Positions 6,830 through 35,496 of a stretch of DNA of 35,837 nt are shown one piece after another. Source of the DNA: Thermoanaerobaculia bacterium (GTDB lineage Bacteria; Acidobacteriota; Thermoanaerobaculia; Gp7-AA8); NCBI GenBank assembly GCA_038230775.1, contig JBBRMQ010000009.1, forward strand, positions 1 to 35,837. Reading direction: 5' to 3'. Both the position numbers and the translations under genes were made by a program. Below the pieces are notes generated by a model that worked only from the letters and a program-made list of their open reading frames with translations, was not told the DNA's origin and ran no database searches. Position 1 is the stretch's first letter. Every line of letters begins with the position of its first letter.

Positions 6830-9694
6830 CTACTTGTCCACGACAATAGCATCCTCTTTCGAGGGATCGTGCACGACAAACAAGAGACGCCGCGAAATGA
6901 GATTGCTCGGAAAGAGAAGCGCAAAGCCCATTGAAACGATGTTCTCGTTGCGAGTCATATCGCGAACGGGGTAAAAGAGCAGAACCGCGCGTCTTGGCTT
7001 CTTGAGTGCGACGACCGACTCAGATGGCGAGTCACCTTCGTGAATTCCAACGATATACTCAAGTATCTTCCGGTGTCGTGGCTCGCTATACGTCTTGAAG
7101 CGGTAGGGTTCGACCTGAACGCGCGCGCGATGGGCGACCGAGAACTCCGCCTTCTTGGTGCCAAGCCAGAATTCATCCCAGTCTTGCAGTTGGGGCGCGA
7201 CAAACAACCAATCATCAATACAAGGATCGCCCATTGCGCCCCGTGCGAACTCAAGAACGGGACCCAATACTCCTGGTTTCGACCATCGATACGATTCCAA
7301 AAAAGTCAGAACGTTTTGCTTATCTAAGAGCGCCCAGTGAGCCACCATCTCGCGGGTCTCGCCGTCTCGCTGGACGGAGAAATACGTCTCGGTGAGCAAT
7401 CCGGTCCCGCTTAGCATCAGTTTCGCCGCAGAATTATTGCTATTTGCACTCTTCTCATCGGTTGGTGCCAGCGTTCGTTCAACCCACTCGCCGCCAAAGT
7501 TTTGGGACTTCAGTACAGCGTTATACATTTTGTTGCGAGATGTAGGCGCGAGAAGATGTGCGGGCACGAGGGGTGGAACATCGCGTGGGGTTATGCGAGG
7601 GTCTGACTCCCGTGAGTAGCGACCCAGTCGGTCACGAAAATCTTCTTCGTCAAGGCAGATGGACTTAAACGCTTCGAGAAGATCGAAGGTTGTTCTACCG
7701 TCAGGTTCGGCCCGTCCAATGAACAGCCGGACAAGATCGCGATAACCGTAACGGTAACCAAACCATCGCCCCATTTGCATCAACGTGTCGGCGTTACGCG
7801 CCCTTCGGCGGTAGTAGCTGATAGTGAGGCCCTCAACCGTATAACCTCTCGATAACTTCGTCCCGCCAACCAGAACCTTCCAGATGGGGCCCGATTCGAA
7901 ATCCGGCGCGAGGGAAGCGTAACGCCGATCGCCGTTAACGATCGCAACCGGCGAATCGCCCAAGACGGATAGGCACCGCTCGACAAATGGAAGAAGTTCT
8001 GGAAAGGTTGGTGGTCTCGGCACGCCCTCTTCATAATCGATCAACGCGCTCGTGAACTCCTCTTCATACAGTGCCTGAAGGCGGCCTAAGGCCTGAGGAG
8101 ATCCGTATTTCGCGTCCCGGAAAACCGTCTCGACGACTCGGACATCGGCTTCATGCTCCGAAATTTTATGCGATCGATGAATGAGCATCGTGTGATGCCG
8201 AAACCGAATTGTTGTTACGCTCTGCCGATAAAGCTTTATTGCGCCACTTAGAATGAAAAGATCGAACGCGCGCGGAAGGTTAGAATCATCAGTATCGTCA
8301 CCCCAGATGCCGCGCACGTAAGTACGCTCGTTCGAAGAACCGTCGGCGAGATCAAAGAAGTCGCTCACGCCCATGTAGCGTGATGGTTTTTGAAGCGAAA
8401 TGATAAAGTCCTTTGGAAAGAGATCTACGGCGTCATCAGGATTTACGAAGACGTTTGCGACAGGCGTTGCAGTGTAGCCCACGTACTGACTGCGCGGGAG
8501 AATCCTTAGCAGTTCTACAATTGCGGCATTGGTAGCCGTGCGCTCGCCCCGGGCCTGCCGGTCTGGTGTTAGCGTATTCAAAGATGCTTGGTCGGATTCG
8601 TCGTCGATTATTAATGCCGGGATCGACGCCAGAGGGGTATGAGTAAGCCCTCGCAAGTCCTTGATGAATTTCGTGAGAATTCGACTGTTCTTCTTGATGA
8701 CAACCATGCGGGCCCGGACTTGGCGAAGATTCTCCATCGAGTTGAGACGGCGATCGGGGCGAGCGCGCTCGAATTCAAGGGCGAGCAGGCCGCGCCTGAG
8801 ACTCTGATAATCGCCTTTCGCGCCCGTCAACCTGTGCCAGTCAAAGGAGCCGAGTTCGCTGGGAATCGCACCATAGCTGATGAACTCCTCCCATTCCTGA
8901 TCATCGATATAGTCATGTGGTTCGTCGGCGGCCGTGTCCGCTAGGATCAATTCCTTCCCAATCAGTTGCTTGTCGATCCTTCGCTGGGTTTGATTTCGGA
9001 GAAGGTCTAGCGTCCCGCCTAGTACGACGATGAGCCGGTATCCAGCATCAGCCGCTTTAGCTATGACACCGATGAAGTTTGCGGTCTTCCCGCTTTGCAC
9101 ATAGCCGACGACCATCCCCTTCGTCTGGTATGCCGCTTCTCGGCTCGGCTCCGACAATTCACGAACAACGCCATCGCTGGCACGATTGAGGTCATCAATA
9201 CTGTCCTCGGGCCATTCAGCGCGGTCTCGGAGGTACTGCGAATAGGAATCCCAGTAGAACGAGGACTCCGCACGACGCGCGGGGGTATACCAATCGTCAT
9301 GCGATAATGCTATGACGGTCGGCTCTTTGCTAAGCGTCCGAGCGGGGATAAGCTCGTCGACTCTGGCCCGCTGAGCGGTGGGCAGCTGAAGAAGATCATA
9401 GATTAGCTGGCGGCGAGTCTCGGAGTTCCGTCCTGTCTCGCCGCACCATCCGGCCTCGCCGTAGTCCCATTGATGAAGATATTGAGTGAAGAGTCGACGG
9501 GCTGCCGCGTTAACGTCATCTGACAGCATCAAGTCAATGGCGTCATCCACGTCGCTATCGGCCAGCGATTTGCCTCGCTTGGAGGCGCTGTCTATGAGGA
9601 ACTCCCGTAACGGACGCGGACCAAGGTCTATCTCCGAATAACCCATCGTCCGAAGTGCGGTCGCGATGATTGGGGTGAGCTCTGATTCATTCAT
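6830..9694 (-). CDS. Z1-domain protein with P-loop NTPase / SF2-helicase-like core (954 aa), predicted restriction-like defence component
   Basis: Walker A GYVQSGKTANF and Walker B/DExx LIIDDESDQAS. The size and architecture match the Z1 family of computationally predicted restriction-linked ATPases. It is the last gene of a five-gene operon with 4-bp overlaps, and it is A+T-richer than flanking genes. Confidence 0.75.
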   Translation of the reverse strand: MNESELTPIIATALRTMGYSEIDLGPRPLREFLIDSASKRGKSLADSDVDDAIDLMLSDDVNAAARRLFTQYLHQWDYGEAGWCGETGRNSETRRQLIYDLLQLPTAQRARVDELIPARTLSKEPTVIALSHDDWYTPARRAESSFYWDSYSQYLRDRAEWPEDSIDDLNRASDGVVRELSEPSREAAYQTKGMVVGYVQSGKTANFIGVIAKAADAGYRLIVVLGGTLDLLRNQTQRRIDKQLIGKELILADTAADEPHDYIDDQEWEEFISYGAIPSELGSFDWHRLTGAKGDYQSLRRGLLALEFERARPDRRLNSMENLRQVRARMVVIKKNSRILTKFIKDLRGLTHTPLASIPALIIDDESDQASLNTLTPDRQARGERTATNAAIVELLRILPRSQYVGYTATPVANVFVNPDDAVDLFPKDFIISLQKPSRYMGVSDFFDLADGSSNERTYVRGIWGDDTDDSNLPRAFDLFILSGAIKLYRQSVTTIRFRHHTMLIHRSHKISEHEADVRVVETVFRDAKYGSPQALGRLQALYEEEFTSALIDYEEGVPRPPTFPELLPFVERCLSVLGDSPVAIVNGDRRYASLAPDFESGPIWKVLVGGTKLSRGYTVEGLTISYYRRRARNADTLMQMGRWFGYRYGYRDLVRLFIGRAEPDGRTTFDLLEAFKSICLDEEDFRDRLGRYSRESDPRITPRDVPPLVPAHLLAPTSRNKMYNAVLKSQNFGGEWVERTLAPTDEKSANSNNSAAKLMLSGTGLLTETYFSVQRDGETREMVAHWALLDKQNVLTFLESYRWSKPGVLGPVLEFARGAMGDPCIDDWLFVAPQLQDWDEFWLGTKKAEFSVAHRARVQVEPYRFKTYSEPRHRKILEYIVGIHEGDSPSESVVALKKPRRAVLLFYPVRDMTRNENIVSMGFALLFPSNLISRRLLFVVHDPSKEDAIVVDK

Positions 9695-10695
9695 GAGTCG
9701 TAGCCTAGGAATGGTGTAAGCAATGAGTAGTAAGTCGGATCGGGAGTCTCTACAACGATGCCATCGAGATTCAGGCGGTATCGAACATCTAGGATTCGTG
9801 AAGAAAGTGATTGACCCAACCCGAGATCAAGCAGAGCACGAGTGACCCGGGGGCTGCCGTCAGTGACTAACATTGCGCCGGGAGGCAGCCGAAAGTCATA
9901 TTTATCTTGGTACCGGGTGCCACTTTCGTCGCCATACCCAATGCCATGAAGTCGCTCGTTGAACGCACTCAGTAAATCCGGCCCCGGCTCGAGCATGTCG
10001 CGGACCCTCCCCACCATACCGGGCAGACTGATTCCGGCTGCACCAGAGCGTTTCAGCGTGAGCGACAAGACGATTAGCGAACATCCGGGACTGGGCACGA
10101 GCTGGTCCAGGCTATTGATAGTGTGCACTCGAGAAGCACCAATCGTAGTCTTGACCTCAAGCTCAGCATTGCCACCCCGAAAGTCATGAGCTTCGCCTCG
10201 GGGTCCGACCCACGACGTCAACGCAAGACCAGCGTTCCGGTTCGCTGCTAGCTCCAAAAACCACAGCTCGCCCCAAAGACCAATCTGTCTTTCCAGTGAC
10301 AGATCTTCGTCCCTGCGTAGCAGAAGCTCCCAAAGGTCAATCGCGCCGCGAATAGCGTCGAGCGCCGGCACGCGGTCTAGCTGTATGCGATCAGCAATGT
10401 CCTGAATTAGCGAATATAGCGGCTTAAAAAGAACACGGTTCTCGGTGGAGCATTCAACGACAGATCCTTCGGAATCGGACCGGAAAGAAACATCGACAGC
10501 ACTGAGCGGCAATGTCACGTCCCGTGGCGGTGTGACCGTTCGGCATCGGAGTCCCATCCGGCGTGCGCCGTCATCGACGAAGATGAATATAGACGGCGCT
10601 CCCCGTATGGGATGCAGCGCCGGCACCCCTGGCGCGATGAACGTCTGTTCAAAATGCTCCCAAGTGAGATGACGTTCTGGGTTTGGAACGTTCAC
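9691..10695 (-). CDS. PD-(D/E)xK-like putative nuclease (DUF4420-like), partner of Z1/GHKL modules
   Basis: 334 aa with a candidate nuclease core GLWGELWFLE ... HDFRGGNAELEVKTT (E ... D ... ExK). Start and stop overlap neighbours by 4 bp (ATGA). Confidence 0.5.
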   Translation of the reverse strand: MNVPNPERHLTWEHFEQTFIAPGVPALHPIRGAPSIFIFVDDGARRMGLRCRTVTPPRDVTLPLSAVDVSFRSDSEGSVVECSTENRVLFKPLYSLIQDIADRIQLDRVPALDAIRGAIDLWELLLRRDEDLSLERQIGLWGELWFLELAANRNAGLALTSWVGPRGEAHDFRGGNAELEVKTTIGASRVHTINSLDQLVPSPGCSLIVLSLTLKRSGAAGISLPGMVGRVRDMLEPGPDLLSAFNERLHGIGYGDESGTRYQDKYDFRLPPGAMLVTDGSPRVTRALLDLGLGQSLSSRILDVRYRLNLDGIVVETPDPTYYSLLTPFLGYDS

Positions 10696-12194
10696 CGCAG
10701 AAATCGGATCACCTCCGCCAACGACCTGTCGAGCTTCTCCAACCGCTCCTTCTGCGCTTTAGAGACACGGTTGCTATCGAAGTCGGGTTCCAAAATGAAA
10801 AACAGCAGCAGTTTGACGATAGGTGCATCCGCTGCCGAAGAGCGGCCACCCGAAAGGATAGCTTGTCGCGCCTTTACGTTAAGTCGAATGATCCGTTTGT
10901 CTCGATCGATCTCGAAGAAGGAGCCGGCGGTCAGGTGATCCCACTCAAAATGAACTTCGCGCGTGCGACTACGGCGAGGAACGATGACCTCGCGCAGCTT
11001 AGCCCGAAGTTCCTTGGCCAAGCCCCGGCCTGGTATTAATGGAAAGTCGCGTGGGTCACGCTGCGAACCTGATCGGTAAATAGCAGTTGCCGCACTACGG
11101 TAATCGGTAAAGACAGTGCCGTCCGCGGCCTTGGCCTTTCGCAAAGCGTCGGCGAAGCCGACGGGCTCGCGAATCCCTGATTTTTTCACATCAAGACTGA
11201 ACAAGTTATCTAGTGAAGTCGGAAGGTCTATCGCGACACGCGCTAAGGAGAGGTGGGGTTCCGCCGCATCTTTGCCATCGTTCCATCCACCCGCTTGGAT
11301 TAGTCTGTCGTTGCGATAAAAGTAGAGTCCTTGCCGCGCAGCGACCTTTCCGTCGAGCTTATACGAGGCACTCTCTGAATTCGGGGGCCAAACGTGGCTA
11401 TTGAGTTCGAGTCGCTGACCGTTTGGTAAGCTAACTGCGAAAGTTTTCGGATACTCTTCGTGTCCGGTGCCTTCCGCGTCGTACTCGAATGGATTAAGGG
11501 CCAAAACTTCGGTTTGCGAAACGACAGGGCCGCCAGCTTGAGTACGCGCATCGAGTAGCAAGCGAACGCGTTCGTCCTCAATGAACCGGTGAAAAAACAA
11601 ACCCAGATGCCGCCGAAGGCGGTGAAGGAGGTTCTCTGCAATTCCTTTAGCACCACGCTTGCTTTGATGAATCCTGTCCAGATCTGACCAGATCACAACG
11701 GTACCGTGCTGCTCCAATGAAAGGTGCCCGAAATCGCGGTTTAAGTCACGCTCAACGTCAGGCGCTGCGATGATGTCGTTTCTCCACTGATCTCCGATAC
11801 CTTCAACCGTCCAGCGTCGTCCAGCCACTCGCTTTGAGCGGCGTGTAAGGACCGTGAGAGTTTCGCCTTGGCTGAGGGACGCTAGTTTCAGCCCCATTCC
11901 GTACTTACCGAGTGATTCCGGATCTTGTTCCGTCTCAGAACCAAATCGCATCGCCTCTTCCAGCCGGTCTGGCGTCATGCCCTCGCCATTATCAGCAATG
12001 AAAACTCGCTCGAGAGTATCGTCCGACACTTCAAGTCTGATCAGAACGGTATTCGCGTGCGCCGCTAGAGAGTTATCGACTATGTCGGAGATGGCATTTT
12101 CAATAGAGTACCCAATGGCTCGGAGAGGCCGAACAAGCCTGGCCGGGTTTGGCTCGAGTCTAGATGAGCCCGTAATTCGAAAGTCGGAATCCAT
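10692..12194 (-). CDS. GHKL-superfamily ATPase (HATPase_c_3 / MORC-like, MutL-related) defence component
   Basis: Bergerat-fold motifs: N-box DIVDNSLAAHA, G1 box DNGEGM, G2 box GKYGMGLK. 500 aa with a C-terminal extension. Confidence 0.8.
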   Translation of the reverse strand: MDSDFRITGSSRLEPNPARLVRPLRAIGYSIENAISDIVDNSLAAHANTVLIRLEVSDDTLERVFIADNGEGMTPDRLEEAMRFGSETEQDPESLGKYGMGLKLASLSQGETLTVLTRRSKRVAGRRWTVEGIGDQWRNDIIAAPDVERDLNRDFGHLSLEQHGTVVIWSDLDRIHQSKRGAKGIAENLLHRLRRHLGLFFHRFIEDERVRLLLDARTQAGGPVVSQTEVLALNPFEYDAEGTGHEEYPKTFAVSLPNGQRLELNSHVWPPNSESASYKLDGKVAARQGLYFYRNDRLIQAGGWNDGKDAAEPHLSLARVAIDLPTSLDNLFSLDVKKSGIREPVGFADALRKAKAADGTVFTDYRSAATAIYRSGSQRDPRDFPLIPGRGLAKELRAKLREVIVPRRSRTREVHFEWDHLTAGSFFEIDRDKRIIRLNVKARQAILSGGRSSAADAPIVKLLLFFILEPDFDSNRVSKAQKERLEKLDRSLAEVIRFLR

Positions 12195-12226
12195 TCGTTT
12201 CCCTTCGAAGTTGTTTGCTTAACCGG

Positions 12227-12649
12227 TCACAATCTTGTCCCGAACTTTCGCTTGAGACTTATCGCCAGTTGACTTGGCTTGCTAGTTTGACACTCCCACA
12301 CGGTGAACACCGCCCATCCCGCACGCCGAAGAGCGCTTGCATTACGGCGATCCCGCCGAACATTGTCCTCAAACTTCTTTGACCAAAAGGAGATCCTTGA
12401 TTTCGGAACGTATGCCATCGGGCAGCCGATGTGACGATGCCAAAAGCATCCGTTCACAAACACCACCGTCTTGTGTTTGCGTAGAACAATATCAGGACGT
12501 CCGGGAAGTTTGGAGACGTGAACCCGGAACCGAAGACCCAGAGCGTGAAGAACTCTGCGGACGAGTCGTTCCGGGCCCGTGTCTCGGCCGCGGATCTGAC
12601 CCATGTTCCAGCTTCTAAGTTCTCGCGATATCCGATCGACCATTCGCAA
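12227..12649 (-). CDS. vsr: very short patch repair endonuclease (T:G mismatch endonuclease)
   Basis: 140 aa with the Vsr signature FVNGCFWHRH and conserved surrounding residues. It starts 3 nt after the Dcm stop. Confidence 0.9.
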   Translation of the reverse strand: MRMVDRISRELRSWNMGQIRGRDTGPERLVRRVLHALGLRFRVHVSKLPGRPDIVLRKHKTVVFVNGCFWHRHIGCPMAYVPKSRISFWSKKFEDNVRRDRRNASALRRAGWAVFTVWECQTSKPSQLAISLKRKFGTRL

Positions 12650-12652
12650 TTC

Positions 12653-14230
12653 TCAAAGGAGTCTTGCCTCTGACAGACAATCGAAAACAACCGCCGCTAG
12701 GCCGCGTGCGAGTATCGGAGGCACTGCGTTGCCTACTTGCTGGTATTGGGTAGTTCTGGGACCCTCAAAGAAATAGTTATCAGGAAACGTCTGCAGCCGA
12801 GCTGCCTCTCGGACTGTCAGGCTTCTGCACTGCGTTGCATCCGGATGGATGTAGTAGTGCCCGTCCTTGGAAATGTGCGCCGTTACTGTGGTTGATGGTC
12901 TGTTCCAGAGTTGAACGCGAAAACGATCCGCGAAGAGCGACCCTGTCAGCGCTCGGTCGATATTCTTATGTGCCGGCAGAAGGCGTGGCGGAAAGTCAGC
13001 GAGCGTCGGCGACCGAGAGTGACCGTTCGGGCTTGATGCATAGCATGCAGCAAAGAAATAGCGACCGAGGTCGGACTCCAAGTGACCTCGGCCGGCATGA
13101 TTGCAAACTCCCCCGAGGCGCGGATCGACATACCACTCCGCATGACACTTGGGTGCCGGCGAGCAAGGCATGAATTCGTCGCCCGCGGTTAGCTCAGCGA
13201 GCCTGATTTCGGATAGCGCCTGCCCCATCGCAGTGCGCAGATCATCGTCTAGTCGTTGGCTACGCAGCAGCGGCTTGACCTGTCTTTCAACCGCCTCACG
13301 CCAAGAACGAATAGAGTCTGGTGTCCGCGACAACATGCTTCGTATCGGAGGAAGGTCACCAATGACGGCCCGCGTGGGCACTAGAGCGGCGCCTCCGCGG
13401 AGAAACCCAGGCTCCGCGTCAAGATCGCTTCGAACGCCAAAGATCACGACGCGATGCCTACTCTGGGGAATCTCGTGCTGCTCGCACCTGATAATGTAGT
13501 CAGTGGGGTGACTGGCTTCTCGCGATGCCAGTGAGGCCCGCAAAGGTGCAACAAACGAATACAACTTGTATTCGAGATGTTCTGAGCGATTACCGAACGC
13601 TGTTGATGGTCGTCTCAGATCTTGAGTGATCCGTTCGAACATGCTGTAGTCGCTGATGGTTGAGGAGAGTAGGCCCTTCACATTCTCCATCACGAATGCG
13701 GCCGGTTTGTGTTTCGCGATAATTCGAAGATATTCGCGGTAAAGAAAATGTCGCCGGTCCGCCTCGAATTTGGCTCGGTCGATACCTCGCATGCGCGCGC
13801 GCCCAACTAGCGAATAGGCTTGGCACGGCGGACCGCCAATCAGCAACCATTCTCGCGCGTCCCCCAGAGCGGCACGAATACGTCGATCAACGAGCTTCGC
13901 GCTGGCAATCTGCTCGTTTCCCAACTCCGCATGCCAAGCCTCCGATGACGCCTTTTTCCAAGCGTCAGGGCAGGAAGCCGCCAGTTCGTGCGCGGTGATA
14001 TCGCCGCGCAGGTAGTCGTAATAAGCCGATGGAACCTTGGTTGCAGGGAACTGACGAAAAAAACTTCTGAGGCGGAGTGTCCGATGAGCGACCTCGTCCT
14101 TTTCGATCGACAGGACTACTCGAAATGGTTTGTGATCCTTCGCGGAAAAGGCTGAGAAGCCTTCGCCCAAACCTCCAGGACCGGCAAACAAGTCGACAAT
14201 CGGGATGACCGGGCGGGACACAAGTCGCAT
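12653..14230 (-). CDS. dcm: DNA (cytosine-5)-methyltransferase
   Basis: C5-MTase motifs I DLFAGPGG, IV GGPPCQAYS, VI FVMENVKGL and VIII QSRHRVVIFG. 525 aa. Confidence 0.9.
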   Translation of the reverse strand: MRLVSRPVIPIVDLFAGPGGLGEGFSAFSAKDHKPFRVVLSIEKDEVAHRTLRLRSFFRQFPATKVPSAYYDYLRGDITAHELAASCPDAWKKASSEAWHAELGNEQIASAKLVDRRIRAALGDAREWLLIGGPPCQAYSLVGRARMRGIDRAKFEADRRHFLYREYLRIIAKHKPAAFVMENVKGLLSSTISDYSMFERITQDLRRPSTAFGNRSEHLEYKLYSFVAPLRASLASREASHPTDYIIRCEQHEIPQSRHRVVIFGVRSDLDAEPGFLRGGAALVPTRAVIGDLPPIRSMLSRTPDSIRSWREAVERQVKPLLRSQRLDDDLRTAMGQALSEIRLAELTAGDEFMPCSPAPKCHAEWYVDPRLGGVCNHAGRGHLESDLGRYFFAACYASSPNGHSRSPTLADFPPRLLPAHKNIDRALTGSLFADRFRVQLWNRPSTTVTAHISKDGHYYIHPDATQCRSLTVREAARLQTFPDNYFFEGPRTTQYQQVGNAVPPILARGLAAVVFDCLSEARLL

Positions 14231-14267
14231 TTTACTCGGCAGAGTTGTTTTAGGGCAGGATGCGAGA

Positions 14268-14471
14268 ATGAGCTATTGCCGGTTCTTGATCGTGGTGGAA
14301 GACGCAGGCGCGAACTTTTCCGCGTACTCGCCTGACCTTCCCAGCTGCGTCGCCACAGGCGCGACGCGTGAGGCGGCCGAGAAGAACATGATCGCGGCGA
14401 TTCAGCTGCACATCGAAGGACTCAAAGAGGACGGGCTGCCCATTCCTTCGTCCACTGCGACGGCCGAGTAG
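14268..14471 (+). CDS. hicB: HicB-family (UPF0150) type II antitoxin, apparently orphan
   Basis: MSYCRFLIVVEDAGANFSAYSPDLPSCVATGATREAAEKNMIAAIQLHIEGLKEDGLPIP matches the HicB N-terminal RNase-H-like fold consensus. No HicA-like ORF on either side. The longer ORF from 14205 would overlap the dcm start. Confidence 0.7.
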   Translation: MSYCRFLIVVEDAGANFSAYSPDLPSCVATGATREAAEKNMIAAIQLHIEGLKEDGLPIPSSTATAE

Positions 14472-14477
14472 TAGTCG

Positions 14478-14524
14478 TTGCAGGCTAAGCGCTGTTGACC
14501 GGCTGAAGCCGGTCCATCCACGCA
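14478..14524. repeat. diverged REP-like element (core GACCGGCTGAAGCCGGTC at 14497-14514)
   Basis: The same 18-bp perfect palindrome as at 1351-1368 is present here, 7 nt after the hicB stop. Confidence 0.45.
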
Positions 14525-16811: not shown

Positions 16812-16829
16812 CCTCGACGCGCATGAAAT

Positions 16830-17035
16830 CGATCGCTGCTCGGCATGCGAATCGCCGGACGTCACGCGCATCCCCCGCATTCGCATCTTCGTAATCGCCG
16901 CCGTGACGCTGATCGCCACCAGCCTTGCCTTCGGGGCAGCGCGACCTCTTTCCGCTCGTCATCGCGATCATCGCCGGAGCGCTCGTTCTCACGCCCGCCC
17001 GTCGCTGCCGAGCCTGCCGCGAGCGATAATGGGCA
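16830..17035 (+). pseudogene. frameshifted 3'-terminal fragment paralogous to the last ~68 codons of the gene at 21214-21678 (CPAC zinc-ribbon + TM helix)
   Basis: About 80% nucleotide identity to 21480-21680 along its length. It encodes ...IDRCSACESPDVTRIPRIRIFVIAAVTLIA..., then a 1-nt insertion (GGGGC vs GGCC) shifts the frame. The upstream part of the gene is absent. Confidence 0.6.
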
Positions 17036-20364: not shown

Positions 20365-20437
20365 GAGATGCGGCGGGAGTCGAACCCGCGACACCAGGAT
20401 CCTTAGTCCTGTGCTCTACCCACTGAGCTACACGTGC
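20365..20437 (-). tRNA. tRNA-like gene with canonical D-arm (TAGCTCAGTGGGTAGAGC) and T-arm (GCGGGTTCGACTCCCGC). The anticodon loop reads CU-AAG-GA and the acceptor stem is poorly paired. Possible pseudo-tRNA or chimeric tRNA.
   Basis: I folded it by hand from the reverse complement. 5' GCACGTG versus 3' CGCATCT gives only 3 Watson-Crick and 2 G-U pairs out of 7. An AAG (Leu-type, A34) anticodon is unusual in bacteria. Confidence 0.45.
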
Positions 20438-21143: not shown

Positions 21144-21198
21144 GTGTGTGGGGCCAGCCCTCCGGCTGGCCTGGCCAGTCAGAGGACTGGCCCCACAC
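21144..21198. repeat. REP-like element, family B: GTGTGTGGGGCCAGCCCTCCGGCTGGCC-T-GGCCAGTCAGAGGACTGGCCCCACAC (two tandem 8-bp-stem hairpins inside an outer GTGTGGGG/CCCCACAC stem)
   Basis: A near-identical copy lies at 34833-34885. This copy is in the 5' region of the 21214 gene. Confidence 0.65.
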
Positions 21199-21213
21199 TC
21201 GCTTCGCCGTATG

Positions 21214-21678
21214 CTCGGTCCCGTGGACGTGGATCACCCGGTCGTCATCGCGGCGTTTCGCTCGGCGGAGGAAGCCGCGTATGCGCGCACGCTGCTCGAG
21301 CGGGAGAAGATTTCGGCTGCCGCGATCCAGCGGCAAAACTCGATCGAGCGATTGTGTCCCGATGCTTTCGAAGGCGGCTTCGACGTCGTTGTCGGCCGGC
21401 CAGACGCTCCGGCCGCCATCGCGCTGCTTCAGCGCGTCTTTCCGGAGGAGAAAGTGCTCGATGCGATCGTCATCGATCGCTGCCCCGCATGCGGATCGTC
21501 GGATGTGATGCGCATCCCGCGCATTCGCATTCTCGTGATCGCCGCGGTGACGCTGATCGCCGCCAACCTCGCATTTGGCCAGCGCGATCTCTTTCTACTC
21601 GTCATCGCGATCATCGCCGGAGCGCTCGCGCTCACGCCGGCCCTTCGCTGCCGCACATGCGGCGAACGCTGGTCGTGA
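21214..21678 (+). CDS. small protein with N-terminal DUF2007-like (putative signal-transduction) domain, CPAC...CRTC zinc ribbon and one TM helix
   Basis: MLGPVDVDHPVVIAAFRSAEEAAYARTLLEREKI..., then DRCPACGSSDVMRIPRIRILVIAAVTLIAANLAFG...RCRTCGERWS. I chose the start downstream of the REP-encoded extension of the longer ORF. Its 3' end has a decayed paralogous copy at 16830-17035. Confidence 0.5.
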   Translation, partial: LGPVDVDHPVVIAAFRSAEEAAYARTLLEREKISAAAIQRQNSIERLCPDAFEGGFDVVVGRPDAPAAIALLQRVFPEEKVLDAIVIDRCPACGSSDVMRIPRIRILVIAAVTLIAANLAFGQRDLFLLVIAIIAGALALTPALRCRTCGERWS

Positions 21679-26614: not shown

Positions 26615-26728
26615 CCCCTCACCCGGCCTCCGGCCACCCTCTCCCCGCAAGCGGGGCGAGGGGCCACCACCCAATGTTGCCCTTCTCCCCGCGTGCGGGG
26701 AGAAGGTGCCCGAAGGGCGGATGAGGGG
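26615..26728. repeat. ~115-bp GC-rich repeat, family C, copy 1 (contains hairpins CCCTCTCCCCGC-aag-CGGGGCGAGGGG and CCTTCTCCCCGC-gtg-CGGGGAGAAGG)
   Basis: An inverted, ~85-90% identical copy lies at 28019-28144. Together they flank a 1.29-kb segment. Confidence 0.65.
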
Positions 26729-26961
26729 CGCCTGCACTCGTGCCGCGCTTCCCTGGAACCGGCGGCTGATGCCTGCGGAGACGAACACGTTCGGGACGTC
26801 CGCTCCATGCGATTCAGCGACCAGCGATCGTTCAGGTTGAAGTCCGCGGCAAGACGATGCCCGACGATCCGCGTTGATGAGGTCGTCGGCCTGCCCAAAT
26901 GCATTTGCAGCCAGCGCAAACGACAGAAGAATCCAGATTTTTCTTCACGATCGCCGGGCGT

Positions 26962-27435
26962 CTACGCCGAATTGCCGCGCATCACGCTCTTGCAGTCGAT
27001 CGTTCCCTCGAGTTTGATGCCGCCCGCGGTCGACCCGCTGAACGTGATCTTGGCGGTGTTGCCGCTGTCGGTGATCCCCACCACTCCGGTGCCGCTCCTC
27101 TTCTTCTCGCGTCGGGTCTCGATCGAGTATTCGGCGCTGCGCTTGAGGAGCGGTCCGAAGCCGACCGAGATGAAGAATTCGCTCGTCATGTTGTTCGGTC
27201 GCGGGGCGATCAACTGCAGGCTGTTGAAATGTTTGGGATCCGGATCCTTCGGGTTGGAGAGCTGGTTGCCCCAGGCGCCGGGCGCGGCCAGGCCGACGCT
27301 GCAGCCACCTTTGTCCGTTGTCGCTTCGTACGTTCCGGCGTGCGGTCCGCCGGTCACTTTGAGGTGAACGACTTCCTTCACTTGAGCGGTGGCCGTCACG
27401 GCGCAGAAGAGGGTCAGCACGAATCGACTTTTCAT
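26962..27435 (-). CDS. small secreted hypothetical protein (signal peptide MKSRFVLTLFCAVTATAQV)
   Basis: I chose the start at the Met before the signal peptide. Ser/Thr/Gly-rich mature part with no known domain. Confidence 0.45.
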   Translation of the reverse strand: MKSRFVLTLFCAVTATAQVKEVVHLKVTGGPHAGTYEATTDKGGCSVGLAAPGAWGNQLSNPKDPDPKHFNSLQLIAPRPNNMTSEFFISVGFGPLLKRSAEYSIETRREKKRSGTGVVGITDSGNTAKITFSGSTAGGIKLEGTIDCKSVMRGNSA

Positions 27436-27469
27436 GCGAGCATTATGGGCCTCGCGCAAGGAGGAATGG

Positions 27470-27955
27470 ATGAACAACCGCGAATTCTTCATGCAACGAT
27501 GGGAAGCCGAGCAGCCCGCATTCATGCGCGTGCTTCGCGCCGTCCCCGAAGGAAAACTCTCCTACAAGCCGCACGAACGCTCTTCGGCCGCGGGCTCTCT
27601 GGCCTGGCAATTGGCGGAAGAGATGAAGCAGCTGAGTGAGCTGTTGGACACCGGGGAGATCCACTTCCACGTCAAGCCGCATCCGGAGAAGGCCACCGAC
27701 ATCGTGAGCTCGTACGAGAAAGCGGCGAACGACTTCAGATCACGCGTGAAATCGGCGAACGACGCGAAGTGGGATAGCCCGGGAAAATTCTTCATGAAGG
27801 GCGAGGTCGCCTGGTCCGACACGGTGGCGAACCTCTGCTGGGGCTATCTGTTCGACATGGTCCATCATCGCGGTCAGCTCAGCACCTACCTGCGCCCGAT
27901 GGGCGGCAAGGTGCCCGCGATCTACGGACCGTCGGCCGACGACAGCGGATCGTAA
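27470..27955 (+). CDS. DinB/YfiT-like (DinB_2) four-helix-bundle metal-binding protein
   Basis: Signature ...LFDMVHHRGQLSTYLRPMGG... near the C-terminus. RBS AAGGAGGAATGG before ATG 27470. Confidence 0.65.
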   Translation: MNNREFFMQRWEAEQPAFMRVLRAVPEGKLSYKPHERSSAAGSLAWQLAEEMKQLSELLDTGEIHFHVKPHPEKATDIVSSYEKAANDFRSRVKSANDAKWDSPGKFFMKGEVAWSDTVANLCWGYLFDMVHHRGQLSTYLRPMGGKVPAIYGPSADDSGS

Positions 27956-28018
27956 GTCGCAAGTGCCGCGTGCAATCCTGACCAGCAAGCCTAGCGAAGT
28001 TCTGAACAAGTCCCGGCG

Positions 28019-28144
28019 CCCCTTATCCGCCCTTGGGGCACCTTCTCCCCGCGTGCTGTTTGGCTGGGAGAAGGGCAACAAAGGGGGTGGTGGCCCTCGC
28101 CCCGCTCTTGCGGGGAGAGGGTGGCCGAAGGCCGGGTGAGGGGG
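28019..28144. repeat. ~125-bp GC-rich repeat, family C, copy 2 (inverted relative to 26615-26728; carries a ~9-nt insertion in one hairpin)
   Basis: Its reverse complement aligns to copy 1 along the full length (CACCCGGCCTTCGGCCACCCTCTCCCCGCAAGAGCGGGGCGAGGGCCACCACCC...). Confidence 0.65.
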
Positions 28145-33391: not shown

Positions 33392-33409
33392 TGTTGTGCG
33401 TCGGAAATA

Positions 33410-33538
33410 GACCGGCCGTGACCGGCTCAAGCCGGTCCTCACACAGAAGCAATACGTAGCCCACGGACACGTTGAAAGGACTGTCGGTTTGGTCCGCTTC
33501 GGTGTGAGGACCGGCTTCAGCCGGTCACGGCCGATCGG
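33410..33538. repeat. MITE-like element: two 35-37-bp inverted arms (each a family-A REP unit GACCGGC..AGCCGGTC flanked by GTGTGAGG) around a 57-bp spacer
   Basis: The left arm GACCGGCCGTGACCGGCTCAAGCCGGTCCTCACAC and right arm GTGTGAGGACCGGCTTCAGCCGGTCACGGCCGATCGG are reverse complements with 2 mismatches. It sits between two convergent genes. Confidence 0.6.
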
Positions 33539-33561: not shown

Positions 33562-35496
33562 CTAGCGCGGAAACGCTTCTTTGACCCCGCCGTCGACGGG
33601 GAGCATCGCGCCTGTGGTCTTTGCAGAGCGTGGTCCGGCGAGAAACAGCGCCGCTTCCGCAACGTCGGCCGCGGTTACTTCGGTCTTGAGCAGCGTGCGG
33701 TTGCGATAGAAATCCGGCAGCTTCTCCGCGTCGATGCCGTAGTTCTGCGCGCGCATCTCGCGCATCTCGTCGCTCCAGAACCGCGAGTTGCCGAAGATGG
33801 CGTCGGGATTGAGCATGTTGGCGCGAATGCCGAACTCGCCCCCTTCGATTGCCACGATGCGGCAGAGCTGCGCTTCGGCTGCCTTGCTCACGCTGTACGC
33901 ACCGAACTCCTTGCCCGGCGCTGTGACGTTCTTCGATGCATTGAATACGATCGAGCCGCCGAGGGCCTGTTGTTTCATGATGCGCATGGCGGCGCGGGCG
34001 ACCAGGAAGTGGCCGCGGGCGTTGACGGCGAAGCTGCGGTCCCAATCGCCGGCCGACAAGACGTCGAGGCTTCCGAACGATGAGATGCCGGCGTTGCTGA
34101 CCACGATGTCGACGCCGCCGTAAACGAGCACGGTCTCCTCGAAAGCGCGATCGACCTGTTCCTCGCTGCTGACGTCAAGAGAGAACGCGATCGCTCGACG
34201 TAGCCCGTGCTTCAGCACGATTTCGTTCGCGACTTCGGTGGCCAGCTCCTGATCGACGTCGGTCACGACGACATGTGCGCCTTCCTCGGCGAAGCGTTCG
34301 GCGATGGCGCGGCCGATGCCGCTCGCCGCCCCGGTGACGAGCGCGATTTTTCCGGCGAGCTCTTTCTCCTTCGGCAGCAGCGTGAGCTTGTAGAGCTCGA
34401 GCGGCCAGTACTCCGCATGAAAGGCGTCGTAATCGTTCAGCGTCTCGTAGCCGCCCGCGGATTCGGCGGCGGTGATGATGCGCATCGTGTGGCGATAGAT
34501 GTCGCGAACGATGCGTGCGGCACGTGCGTCTTTTCCGGCCGTCCACATGCCGACGCCCGGGACCAGCACGACGCGCGGCTCCGGATCGAGCATCGCGAAT
34601 TCGGACGGATGCGCCGCGTACCACTTCGTGTAGCGCTCGACGTACTGCTCGAACGCGTGATCGCCTTCCAGCACGAGCGGGAACCGCTTGGTGTAGAGCA
34701 GATGATCGGGCGTGGCGGCCCCAACCTGCGAGATGCGCGCGAGATCCGGCCGATTGACGAAGGCAAGAGTCTCGGGGCTGCGATCGAATTCAAGAACTCT
34801 CTTGAGCCTCTTGCGAATCGTGAGCGCGGTGCTGTGTGGGGCCAGCCCTCCGGCTGGCCGGCCAGCCAGAGGGCTGGCCCCACACAGAAACTTCTCCGCC
34901 TCGGTGACCAGCGCGATATGCCGCTCATACGCCTCCTGCGGCGTATCTCCCCACGTGATGAGCCCGTGATTCATGAGGACCAGCCCATCAGCCTTCGCAT
35001 CGAAGGCCTCTCCCACTTCGCGACTCAACCGGAATCCGGGTCGCCTGTACGCAACGGTGGTGACGCGATTCCCGAAGCACTGGCGAACCGTGGCCTCGCG
35101 ACCGCGCGTGTTGGTGATCGCGAGAATGGCATCGGCGTGCGTGTGCAGCACGGCCTTCGCCGGGATGAATGCATGCAGCAGCGTCTCGATCGAAGGGCGG
35201 GCGCTGGAAGGATCGACCAGGCACCGCGCGAGGTATTCGACCATCTCCTGATCGGTCATGTCTTCGTCGCGATGCCGGAGCGGCTCGATGTAGTCCAGCC
35301 GCACCGCTGGAAACTGCTTCGGCACGATCGACTTCATGTCGCTGCCGCTGCTCTTGATGTACATGACGTCGATGGCGCGGCCTAACAGATCCTTCGCCGC
35401 CGACTTCATGCTGTTGTTCCCGCCGCCCCAGAGCACGAGGTCTTCGCGGGCGCCGACGAGGCGCGATTGGCTGACGAGTTGTTCGGTGACGTCCAA
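33562..35496 (-). CDS. bifunctional class II aldolase (rhamnulose-1-phosphate aldolase-like) / short-chain dehydrogenase-reductase. It carries an in-frame 18-codon REP insertion.
   Basis: N-terminal aldolase block (GGGNNSMK...HTHADAILAITN), C-terminal SDR block (TGAASGIGRAIA ... NAG ... YSVSKAA). TTG start in the ORF track. Residues LCGASPLAGRPAGGLAPHS are encoded by the REP copy at 34833-34885. Confidence 0.85.
   Translation of the reverse strand: MDVTEQLVSQSRLVGAREDLVLWGGGNNSMKSAAKDLLGRAIDVMYIKSSGSDMKSIVPKQFPAVRLDYIEPLRHRDEDMTDQEMVEYLARCLVDPSSARPSIETLLHAFIPAKAVLHTHADAILAITNTRGREATVRQCFGNRVTTVAYRRPGFRLSREVGEAFDAKADGLVLMNHGLITWGDTPQEAYERHIALVTEAEKFLCGASPLAGRPAGGLAPHSTALTIRKRLKRVLEFDRSPETLAFVNRPDLARISQVGAATPDHLLYTKRFPLVLEGDHAFEQYVERYTKWYAAHPSEFAMLDPEPRVVLVPGVGMWTAGKDARAARIVRDIYRHTMRIITAAESAGGYETLNDYDAFHAEYWPLELYKLTLLPKEKELAGKIALVTGAASGIGRAIAERFAEEGAHVVVTDVDQELATEVANEIVLKHGLRRAIAFSLDVSSEEQVDRAFEETVLVYGGVDIVVSNAGISSFGSLDVLSAGDWDRSFAVNARGHFLVARAAMRIMKQQALGGSIVFNASKNVTAPGKEFGAYSVSKAAEAQLCRIVAIEGGEFGIRANMLNPDAIFGNSRFWSDEMREMRAQNYGIDAEKLPDFYRNRTLLKTEVTAADVAEAALFLAGPRSAKTTGAMLPVDGGVKEAFPR
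34833..34885. repeat. REP-like element, family B, copy 2, lying inside the aldolase/SDR coding sequence
   Basis: CTGTGTGGGGCCAGCCCTCCGGCTGGCC-GGCCAGCCAGAGGGCTGGCCCCACACAG. Near-identical to 21144-21198. The reading frame stays open through it. Confidence 0.7.

Follow-up and report, generated by a model that had tools for sequence, protein, structure and literature searches.

An in-frame REP-like palindrome in an aldolase/dehydrogenase gene and the recurrent occupation of its spacer loop by other palindromes

The 35,837-nt contig JBBRMQ010000009.1 of a Thermoanaerobaculia bacterium (assembly GCA_038230775.1), referred to throughout as the window, carries a 56-nt palindrome inside the gene for a bifunctional rhamnulose-1-phosphate aldolase/short-chain dehydrogenase. 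The element resembles the REP (repetitive extragenic palindromic) sequences of other bacteria. It has a sister copy elsewhere in the window, keeps the reading frame of its host gene open, lies at the loop that follows the aldolase domain and brings no net gain in protein length. In related genes the same loop is recurrently occupied by palindromes of other clusters, which have intergenic copies of their own and among which a decay series can be followed. We consider it likely that the window's element derives recently from a dispersed repeat of REP type, lying in frame in an unconstrained spacer loop, and that this loop is a slot refilled by many palindromic clusters. The features on which the analysis turns are as follows, strand being given where one is assigned.

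33562-35496, minus strand: bifunctional rhamnulose-1-phosphate aldolase / short-chain dehydrogenase (SDR), 644 aa, TTG start; Aldolase_II at residues 6-201, SDR at residues 383-638
34832-34887, no strand assigned: in-frame REP dimer, a 56-nt palindrome with a 53-nt common core at 34833-34885; codes for L204-S222 (LCGASPLAGRPAGGLAPHS)
34834-34859, plus strand: REP unit 1, with GTGTGG tag, 8-bp stem and 4-nt loop (GGCCAGCC CTCC GGCTGGCC); 0 mismatches to 21146-21171
34860-34885, minus strand: REP unit 2, inverted; 1 mismatch to unit 1
21145-21198, no strand assigned: sister copy of the REP dimer, 54 nt, with a 1-nt spacer and a compensatory change in unit 2; apparently intergenic

The palindrome, its sister copy and its host gene

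The letters at 34832-34887 (CTGTGTGGGGCCAGCCCTCCGGCTGGCC followed directly by GGCCAGCCAGAGGGCTGGCCCCACACAG) form two arms of 28 nt that are 96% complementary, with 1 mismatch and a spacer of 0. Read directly, they resolve into two 26-nt units in inverted orientation, a dimer in which each unit has a GTGTGG tag and its own 8-bp stem closed by a 4-nt loop (GGCCAGCC-CTCC-GGCTGGCC). The units thus have the 20-40-nt, G+C-rich stem-loop form of REPs, and their inverted pairing into one longer hairpin is that of the REPINs. The strength of this hairpin was assessed by comparison with shuffled sequences: the mRNA strand of the element region folds at -66.7 kcal/mol against a shuffle mean of -37.6 (z = -7.9), and 0 of 200 shuffles were as stable. 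The element is palindromic throughout and so lacks the terminal inverted repeats around a core that mark a MITE (miniature inverted-repeat transposable element); nor is a target-site duplication, a further mark of a MITE, present in the flanks of the gene copy (GGTGC / AGAAA) or of the intergenic copy (TGGCG / TCGCT). At gathering thresholds Rfam returned a tRNA only, and hence no known RNA family for the element. An exact-pattern scan of the GTDB representative genomes, among which the source genome is not included, gave 0 matches to the REP unit (GTGTGGGGCCAGYCCTCYGRCTGGCC).

The 26-nt arm GTGTGGGGCCAGCCCTCCGGCTGGCC occurs 4 times in the window, once in each arm of 34834-34885 and of 21146-21198, the chance expectation in shuffled sequence being 0. 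Compared by BLAST, the two copies are 94.4% identical across 54 nt, and the core common to them is 53 nt long (34833-34885). They lie 13.7 kb apart in unrelated flanks. Unit 2 of the sister copy (21173-21198) carries a matching pair of changes (GGCCAGTC...GACTGGCC) by which its small stem is kept. This copy stands 13 nt upstream of the ATG at 21211 of a small open reading frame (ORF) that has no database match, and downstream of the tRNA at 20365-20437; it is apparently intergenic. Among the strong palindromes of the window, only 34832-34887 falls within a gene. That 21145-21198 might be a fragment of a duplicated aldolase gene was considered and rejected, the flanks being unrelated.

Two further observations concern the surroundings of the sister copy. 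The tRNA gene (20365-20437, minus strand) is about 700 nt from it. A segment of about 213 nt is duplicated at 16813-17025 and 21457-21668 with 81-86% identity, suggesting two paralogous small genes without Pfam match, and the second of these paralogues is the ORF that the sister copy precedes.

The host protein matches TIGR02632 over its full length (residues 5-644) with 648.7 bits, above the curated cut-off of 567.75. It has thousands of homologues, the nearest of which are 77-84% identical and come from metagenome-assembled genomes (MAGs) of Thermoanaerobaculia/Acidobacteriota; the closest orthologue (P0002) shares 84% identity. The motifs HTHAD, NHG, TGxxxGxG and YxxxK are all present. The repeat lies wholly inside this conserved gene of known function, and the frame stays open across it to give LCGASPLAGRPAGGLAPHS. 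Codon 204 begins exactly at base 34887, so that the palindrome codes for L204-S222 (19 residues); stop codons are absent from all 6 of its reading frames. Judged by the intact ORF, the 84% orthologue identity and the conserved motifs, the enzyme probably remains functional with its repeat-coded loop. A pseudogene was rejected as an explanation on account of the open frame, the uniform conservation and the intact catalytic motifs.

The Pfam Aldolase_II match ends at residue 201 and the repeat-coded stretch begins at 204, at the C-terminal end of the aldolase domain; a standalone 222-aa aldolase-like protein (3m4r) aligns with host residues 5-204. In the AlphaFold2 model a helix at 186-204 is followed by coil at 205-219 (pLDDT <50 at 207-217) and a second helix at 220-231. 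L204-S222 is thus predicted to form, probably, a disordered loop directly after the last aldolase helix, and the model, the Pfam boundary and the 3m4r alignment together suggest a surface loop or linker that would leave the fold undisturbed. From here about 160 conserved residues (222-380) lead to the SDR domain.

Linker lengths were measured between a left anchor at NHGLITWG + 26 aa and a right anchor 27 aa before ATPDH. By this measure the window's linker is 32 aa long. For comparison, medians are 37 aa (30-58) for members of the same clade with a strong palindrome, 36 aa (27-51) for clade members without one and 47 aa (38-64) for outgroups. An alignment of 30 proteins (A1) has a non-conserved, length-variable segment at this site in every orthologue, the window protein being among the shortest. 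The window's repeat sequence is found at the loop in 0 of 147 orthologue loci and 0 of the 29 orthologous proteins of A1. No orthologue has an empty site; all carry other variable sequence of similar length, and relatives at 81-84% identity are too distant to offer the empty site of so young an element. Since the window's linker is not longer than the others and the length of the core, 53 nt, cannot be divided by three, the repeat takes up the spacer instead of lengthening the protein: the repeat-coded peptide is a substitute for spacer, with no net gain of residues.

These results bear in different ways on a preliminary description made from the letters of the window. Its REP-type palindrome with a near-identical intergenic copy was borne out by the 94.4% match and the four arm matches, and the coordinates that it gave, 34833-34885, are those of the 53-nt core. 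Also correct was its placement of the repeat in frame within an open 644-aa aldolase/SDR ORF, as the TIGR02632 score and the 84% identity to the nearest orthologue show. The position was described as lying after the aldolase domain and before the SDR fold; the former is exact, while the latter is loosely worded given the conserved residues that precede the SDR domain. The surface loop that it proposed to look for with AlphaFold appeared as low-confidence coil between two helices. An alignment of orthologues, also proposed there, did show the repeat sequence to be absent from the 147 loci and 29 proteins, but it also showed a variable segment in that place in every one of them. The suggestion that the repeat adds 18 residues is not supported by the linker lengths, and a core of 53 nt does not agree with the clean insertion of 18 codons.

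Palindromes in the same loop of related genes

In total, 161 loci with the gene were collected: 1 through a contig encoding an orthologue, 80 from metagenomes and 80 from named GTDB genomes; they are cited below by our own numbers. Inverted repeats with a loop of <=12 were scored as matches minus twice mismatches, and the best in each linker was compared with the best in windows of the same size tiled over the rest of the gene. Scores >=12 were found in 41 of the 148 linkers (loci with both anchors) and in 5 of 2388 background windows; at >=16 the corresponding figures were 31 of 148 and 0 of 2388. A stricter scan was made on unique sequences, comprising 107 Thermoanaerobaculia-type genes. It yielded 22 palindromes in 12.2 kb of linker (1.80/kb), present in 22 of the 107 genes. 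The remaining 210.8 kb of those genes had 0, and the flanks, 808 kb in all, had 34 (0.042/kb). The linkers are thus 43-fold denser in palindromes than the flanks (binomial p ~1e-25). The 250 nt downstream of the gene contain 0.26 palindromes/kb, and the region around the gene start has a strong palindrome in 2 of 91 cases.

Linker palindromes scoring >=14 fall into 12 mutually unrelated clusters by single-linkage BLAST clustering. The types seen in the loop include GTAG-tagged GTAGGTCGGGCTTCAGCCCGACC dimers, CCCTCTCCCCGC...GCGGGGAGAGGG, GGGTGTCGGG / CCCGACACCC runs, CAATGGGAC runs, AGTCGTCG / CGAAGACT runs, GGTTGCGAGG runs and GTGG-tagged GACAGGC elements. GTAG-tagged dimers occupy the loop in L060, L072, L096 and L045. 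The window's nearest neighbours in a neighbour-joining tree of the core protein (L001, L008 and L082, with 83-84% core identity) each have a different element. Where the picture is clearest, no more than ~13 nt separate the start of the palindrome from the ...AE(E/K)F codons; in both the window gene (WIN) and L060 the spacer is almost filled by it as far as the ...IRGAL helix. Of the 186 frames of the strong palindromes taken together, 144 are open.

As with the window's element, these palindromes are not confined to the loop. BLAST showed the linker palindromes of L068, L035, L072, L045 and L060 to recur in flanking DNA, either of the same locus or of a sister locus. A third palindromic family in the window (CCCCTCACCCGGCC...CTCTCCCCGC / GCGGGGAGA...) is intergenic there, at 26615-26728 and 27993-28143. 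The in-frame loop palindromes of L001, L043, L051 and L069 match this family (26615-28143) and, in addition, copies that lie in the flanks of L033, L048 or L068. A search for the outer 16-20 nt of each linker palindrome in its own flanks returned few copies, BLAST of whole palindromes against all loci being more informative. Four independent contigs begin inside a linker palindrome (L077:1-60, L138:1-60, L140:1-70 and L143:1-40), as expected because assemblies break at repeats. Loop palindromes are present also in the 5-Mb contigs L115 and L146 and are therefore not an artefact of short contigs.

Within one loop family (SGVGS...PTPxP) the scores run from 21 down to 3 among related genes, an erosion of the palindrome once installed that speaks against the hairpin being selected for. 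The outgroup genes, 27 in number (Chloroflexota, Chthonomonadaceae/Armatimonadota and others), with 54-68% core identity, retain a recognisable native segment, ...R.GK.VFGG..V..L.E..RR.VAA.IAP.LRGA.... None of these 27 has a loop palindrome (Fisher p = 0.007), though the palindrome density of their flanks is alike (0.045/kb). The simplest reading is that the native spacer was freed of sequence constraint in the Thermoanaerobaculia lineage and so became a repeat-tolerant site.

One outgroup linker deserves separate mention. In L148, from a Chthonomonadaceae MAG (DASRGL010000020.1), ~17 extra residues (MAPHPQPLPPRTGGGEQPALRM) follow the LRGAI helix; they hold a small palindrome, CCCCTCCCCCC...GGGGGAGGGG, and may represent an independent insertion at a neighbouring site.

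Elsewhere, palindromes deep inside coding sequence were scarce. Three flank palindromes lay deep within ORFs, one of them in a spurious ORF of antisense type, one upstream of the likely start and one, in FeoB of L102, real; the last is the only other genuine in-frame palindrome in ~780 kb of flanking coding-like sequence. It is a REP dimer at L102:2391-2433 (AGGGCAGGCTTCAGCCTGCCC followed by CGGACAGGCTGAAGCCTGTCCT) that codes for AGQASACPGQAEACPT in the cytosolic helical domain, and it gives a second case, from a Thermoanaerobaculia MAG, of a repeat in frame.

Proposed course of events and competing explanations

From these observations we infer a means of mobilisation, the neutrality of the encoded peptide and replacement by insertion combined with deletion. 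The spacer that joins the last aldolase helix to the one after it would be the one segment of the enzyme free of sequence constraint in this bacterial lineage. A young, REPIN-like copy of a dispersed repeat would arrive there, perhaps by the route suggested for REPs, single-strand transposition with a RAYT/IS200-like Y1 transposase. The G+C-rich palindrome, stop-free in all six frames, would then be translated as a disordered loop rich in Gly, Ala, Pro and Arg, and would be tolerated because its six frames are open and the loop need only bridge two helices. Newcomers would be filtered by length and frame only. The repeat would take over the whole spacer in place of earlier content and leave the protein no longer than before. 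By this route at least a dozen palindromic clusters, unrelated to one another, would independently have come to fill the slot, each subject to decay by point mutation and then to replacement.

Several points weigh against this account. The window's element has the tag GTGTGG, and not the GTAG or CGTC of recognised REPs. It may plausibly belong to the RAYT-mobilised REPs/REPINs, with which it agrees in the architecture of unit and dimer and disagrees in its tag. No Y1_Tnp domain (RAYT transposase) was found among the 29 window ORFs scanned against Pfam, and only two copies of the GTGTGG-unit family are visible, both within the 35.8-kb window. Since this element has neither an empty-site allele nor a target duplication, the insertion event itself is unseen. 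With a mean pLDDT of 69.6, the AlphaFold2 model ranks as moderate in quality; rough measures of our own were used to score inverted repeats, to cluster the DNA and to build the neighbour-joining tree; and all the comparison sequences are metagenome or MAG assemblies. Finally, strong palindromes are more frequent in the loop (22 of 107) than in the 250 nt directly downstream of the same gene (6 of 92; Fisher p = 0.007), and per base the loop holds 5-10 times more of them than a generous estimate of intergenic density. This excess over downstream and intergenic DNA hints at something more than tolerance, namely targeting or protection from deletion.

Targeting would make the loop an active hot spot, in which resident REPs, or their single-stranded DNA or hairpins, attract the integration or recombination of new ones, so that REP replaces REP at constant length. 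We regard this as possible but doubtful. It is favoured by the descending densities in loop, downstream 250 nt and flanks overall (1.8, 0.26 and 0.042/kb, respectively), by the different families held at constant length in the closest relatives, by the start of the palindrome, in the clearest cases, near the ...AE(E/K)F codons and the nearly complete filling of the spacer in WIN and L060, and by the fact that REPs cluster and are known targets for insertion sequences (PMC3733652, PMC3184786). Yet the families have no common junction or target-site signature, the estimate of intergenic density is crude, and palindrome-free outgroups with a constrained segment fit permissiveness equally well. 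Moreover, selection for a minimum spacer length could shield the repeats already in place from deletions of the sort by which intergenic ones are lost; a preference for hairpin-holding sites and protection from deletion both fit the present data. In its fullest form, which we hold equally tentatively, the idea makes the loop a self-perpetuating REP landing pad in coding sequence: after loss of the native spacer function, hairpins would recruit further REPs, with families succeeding one another above the intergenic per-base rate and length held by selection. Were this true, nature would have supplied in this gene family a reporter, replicated over the phylogeny, of REP mobility and target choice and of the way in which selfish palindromes bring new peptide sequence into proteins.

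A selected role for the hairpin seems improbable. A strong mRNA hairpin at the domain boundary could act as a translational pause for folding of the aldolase or as a signal for mRNA processing or stability, and the -66.7 kcal/mol fold on the mRNA strand, its position exactly at the end of the aldolase domain and the presence of strong palindromes at the loop in 20-28% of clade members, with none elsewhere in the gene, would suit such a role. Most clade members lack the hairpin, however, as do the outgroup enzymes; scores decay from 21 to 3 within one family while the gene stays intact, and the sequences match ordinary intergenic repeats. The chance is slighter still that the assembly is at fault, a metagenome assembler having joined the halves of the gene through a repeat, or inserted a repeat path, where the real gene has no element. 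The window is a single contig, apparently of a metagenome-type assembly, and its protein cluster has no other member; the four contigs that break exactly at the loop indicate that assemblers struggle there. Against this, both halves of the gene belong to the same orthologue, in frame and uniformly conserved, a de Bruijn path through the repeat would need reads in which repeat k-mers adjoin gene sequence, and the same phenomenon is met in dozens of independent assemblies, the two 5-Mb contigs included. Least credible of all is a native linker that is palindromic by coincidence and not derived from a repeat. Every orthologue does have some variable sequence here, but that of the window is common to no orthologue and recurs, with 94% identity over 54 nt, at an unrelated locus 13.7 kb away, where 0 chance matches are expected; native sequence was rejected on the strength of that copy. 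A young REP-type repeat in a tolerant, recurrently refilled spacer consequently remains the reading that we prefer.

Relation to known elements and other features of the window

In-frame REPs are not new. GTAG/CGTC REPs located wholly inside genes for known proteins, in frame, have been catalogued (Di Nocera, De Gregorio, Rocco 2013, BMC Genomics 14:522; PMC3733652); over half of them are dimers or groups coding for 20-30 aa, their neutrality was proposed from their location in linkers or loops that are flexible, and the recB genes of Xanthomonas campestris and X. oryzae were observed to hold different REPs at roughly one place. The preliminary description had called such insertions rare, a statement to be qualified both by that catalogue and by how common they are at the present loop. 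As in the earlier examples, the window's element is a short, G+C-rich stem-loop dimer, in frame in a linker; unlike them, it is tagged GTGTGG and its host is of Acidobacteriota/Thermoanaerobaculia type. And whereas the recB case involves two species, the aldolase loop has been reused by at least 12 unrelated clusters over ~100 orthologues, with turnover and no gain in length. The element thus belongs to a known kind, the in-frame intragenic linker REPs, and the added interest lies in a REP slot that is recurrently refilled.

The Rickettsia palindromic elements (RPEs; Ogata et al. 2000, cited in PMC3733652 and PMC3184786) are the classic in-frame, translated and tolerated palindromic insertions, with lengths of 105-146 nt (PMC3184786). 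The window's element resembles them as a palindromic repeat in frame in a functional protein gene. RPEs are A+T-rich, add a segment of 35-50 aa and are usually common to species by descent. The present element differs in being 53-56 nt long and G+C-rich, in filling a pre-existing spacer and in being quickly replaced. REPINs and the REP-RAYT systems are said to have been described by Bertels and Rainey in 2011 and by Nunvar in 2010. The window's element shares with REPINs two inverted REP units that form one long hairpin, and its two near-identical copies in the window may belong to a dispersed set like theirs. REPINs are defined as extragenic; this element, by contrast, is intragenic. It has no GTAG tag, and no RAYT gene was seen in the window. 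In-frame insertions of MITEs have also been reviewed (PMC3184786). The likeness there is that of a small non-autonomous repeat fused in frame into coding sequence; the differences are the lack of terminal inverted repeats around a non-palindromic core and of a visible target-site duplication, the whole element being a hairpin.

Taken singly, an in-frame linker REP would be a footnote, of a kind catalogued in 2013. What is unusual is that one loop of a well-conserved enzyme has been overwritten by at least a dozen unrelated repeat clusters in a single bacterial class. The series from perfect to decayed palindromes, together with the native segment of the outgroups, constitutes a replicated natural experiment with which to address how often REPs move, whether they prefer sites already holding a hairpin, and how much arbitrary peptide can be accommodated at a domain boundary. 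There are practical warnings too: such loops interrupt metagenome assemblies and leave the gene divided, four contigs ending exactly there, and repeat-derived peptides (GERVRVRG, AAALQ, GLKPDL and similar) occur both in real proteins and in spurious ORFs.

The window contains another REP family, of elements ending, like the one in the aldolase gene, in GTGTG...CACAC (GTGTGTGGACCGGCTTCAGCCGGTCA type), at 1320-1372, 14496-14521, 33395-33445 and 33496-33536. The last two are a pair and lie where the 3' ends of the aldolase/SDR gene and a GGDEF gene converge, in the space between them.

Further from the aldolase gene, the block 6830-14230 (minus strand) has no ORF that passes the GC3 (third-codon-position G+C) gene filter. 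Its four genes match MzaC (Z1 domain), MzaD (DUF4420, PD-(D/E)XK), MzaB (HATPase_c_3) and a C-5 cytosine methyltransferase, so that it looks like an Mza-type defence island. A HicB-like antitoxin ORF at 14136-14471 (plus strand) adjoins this putative island.

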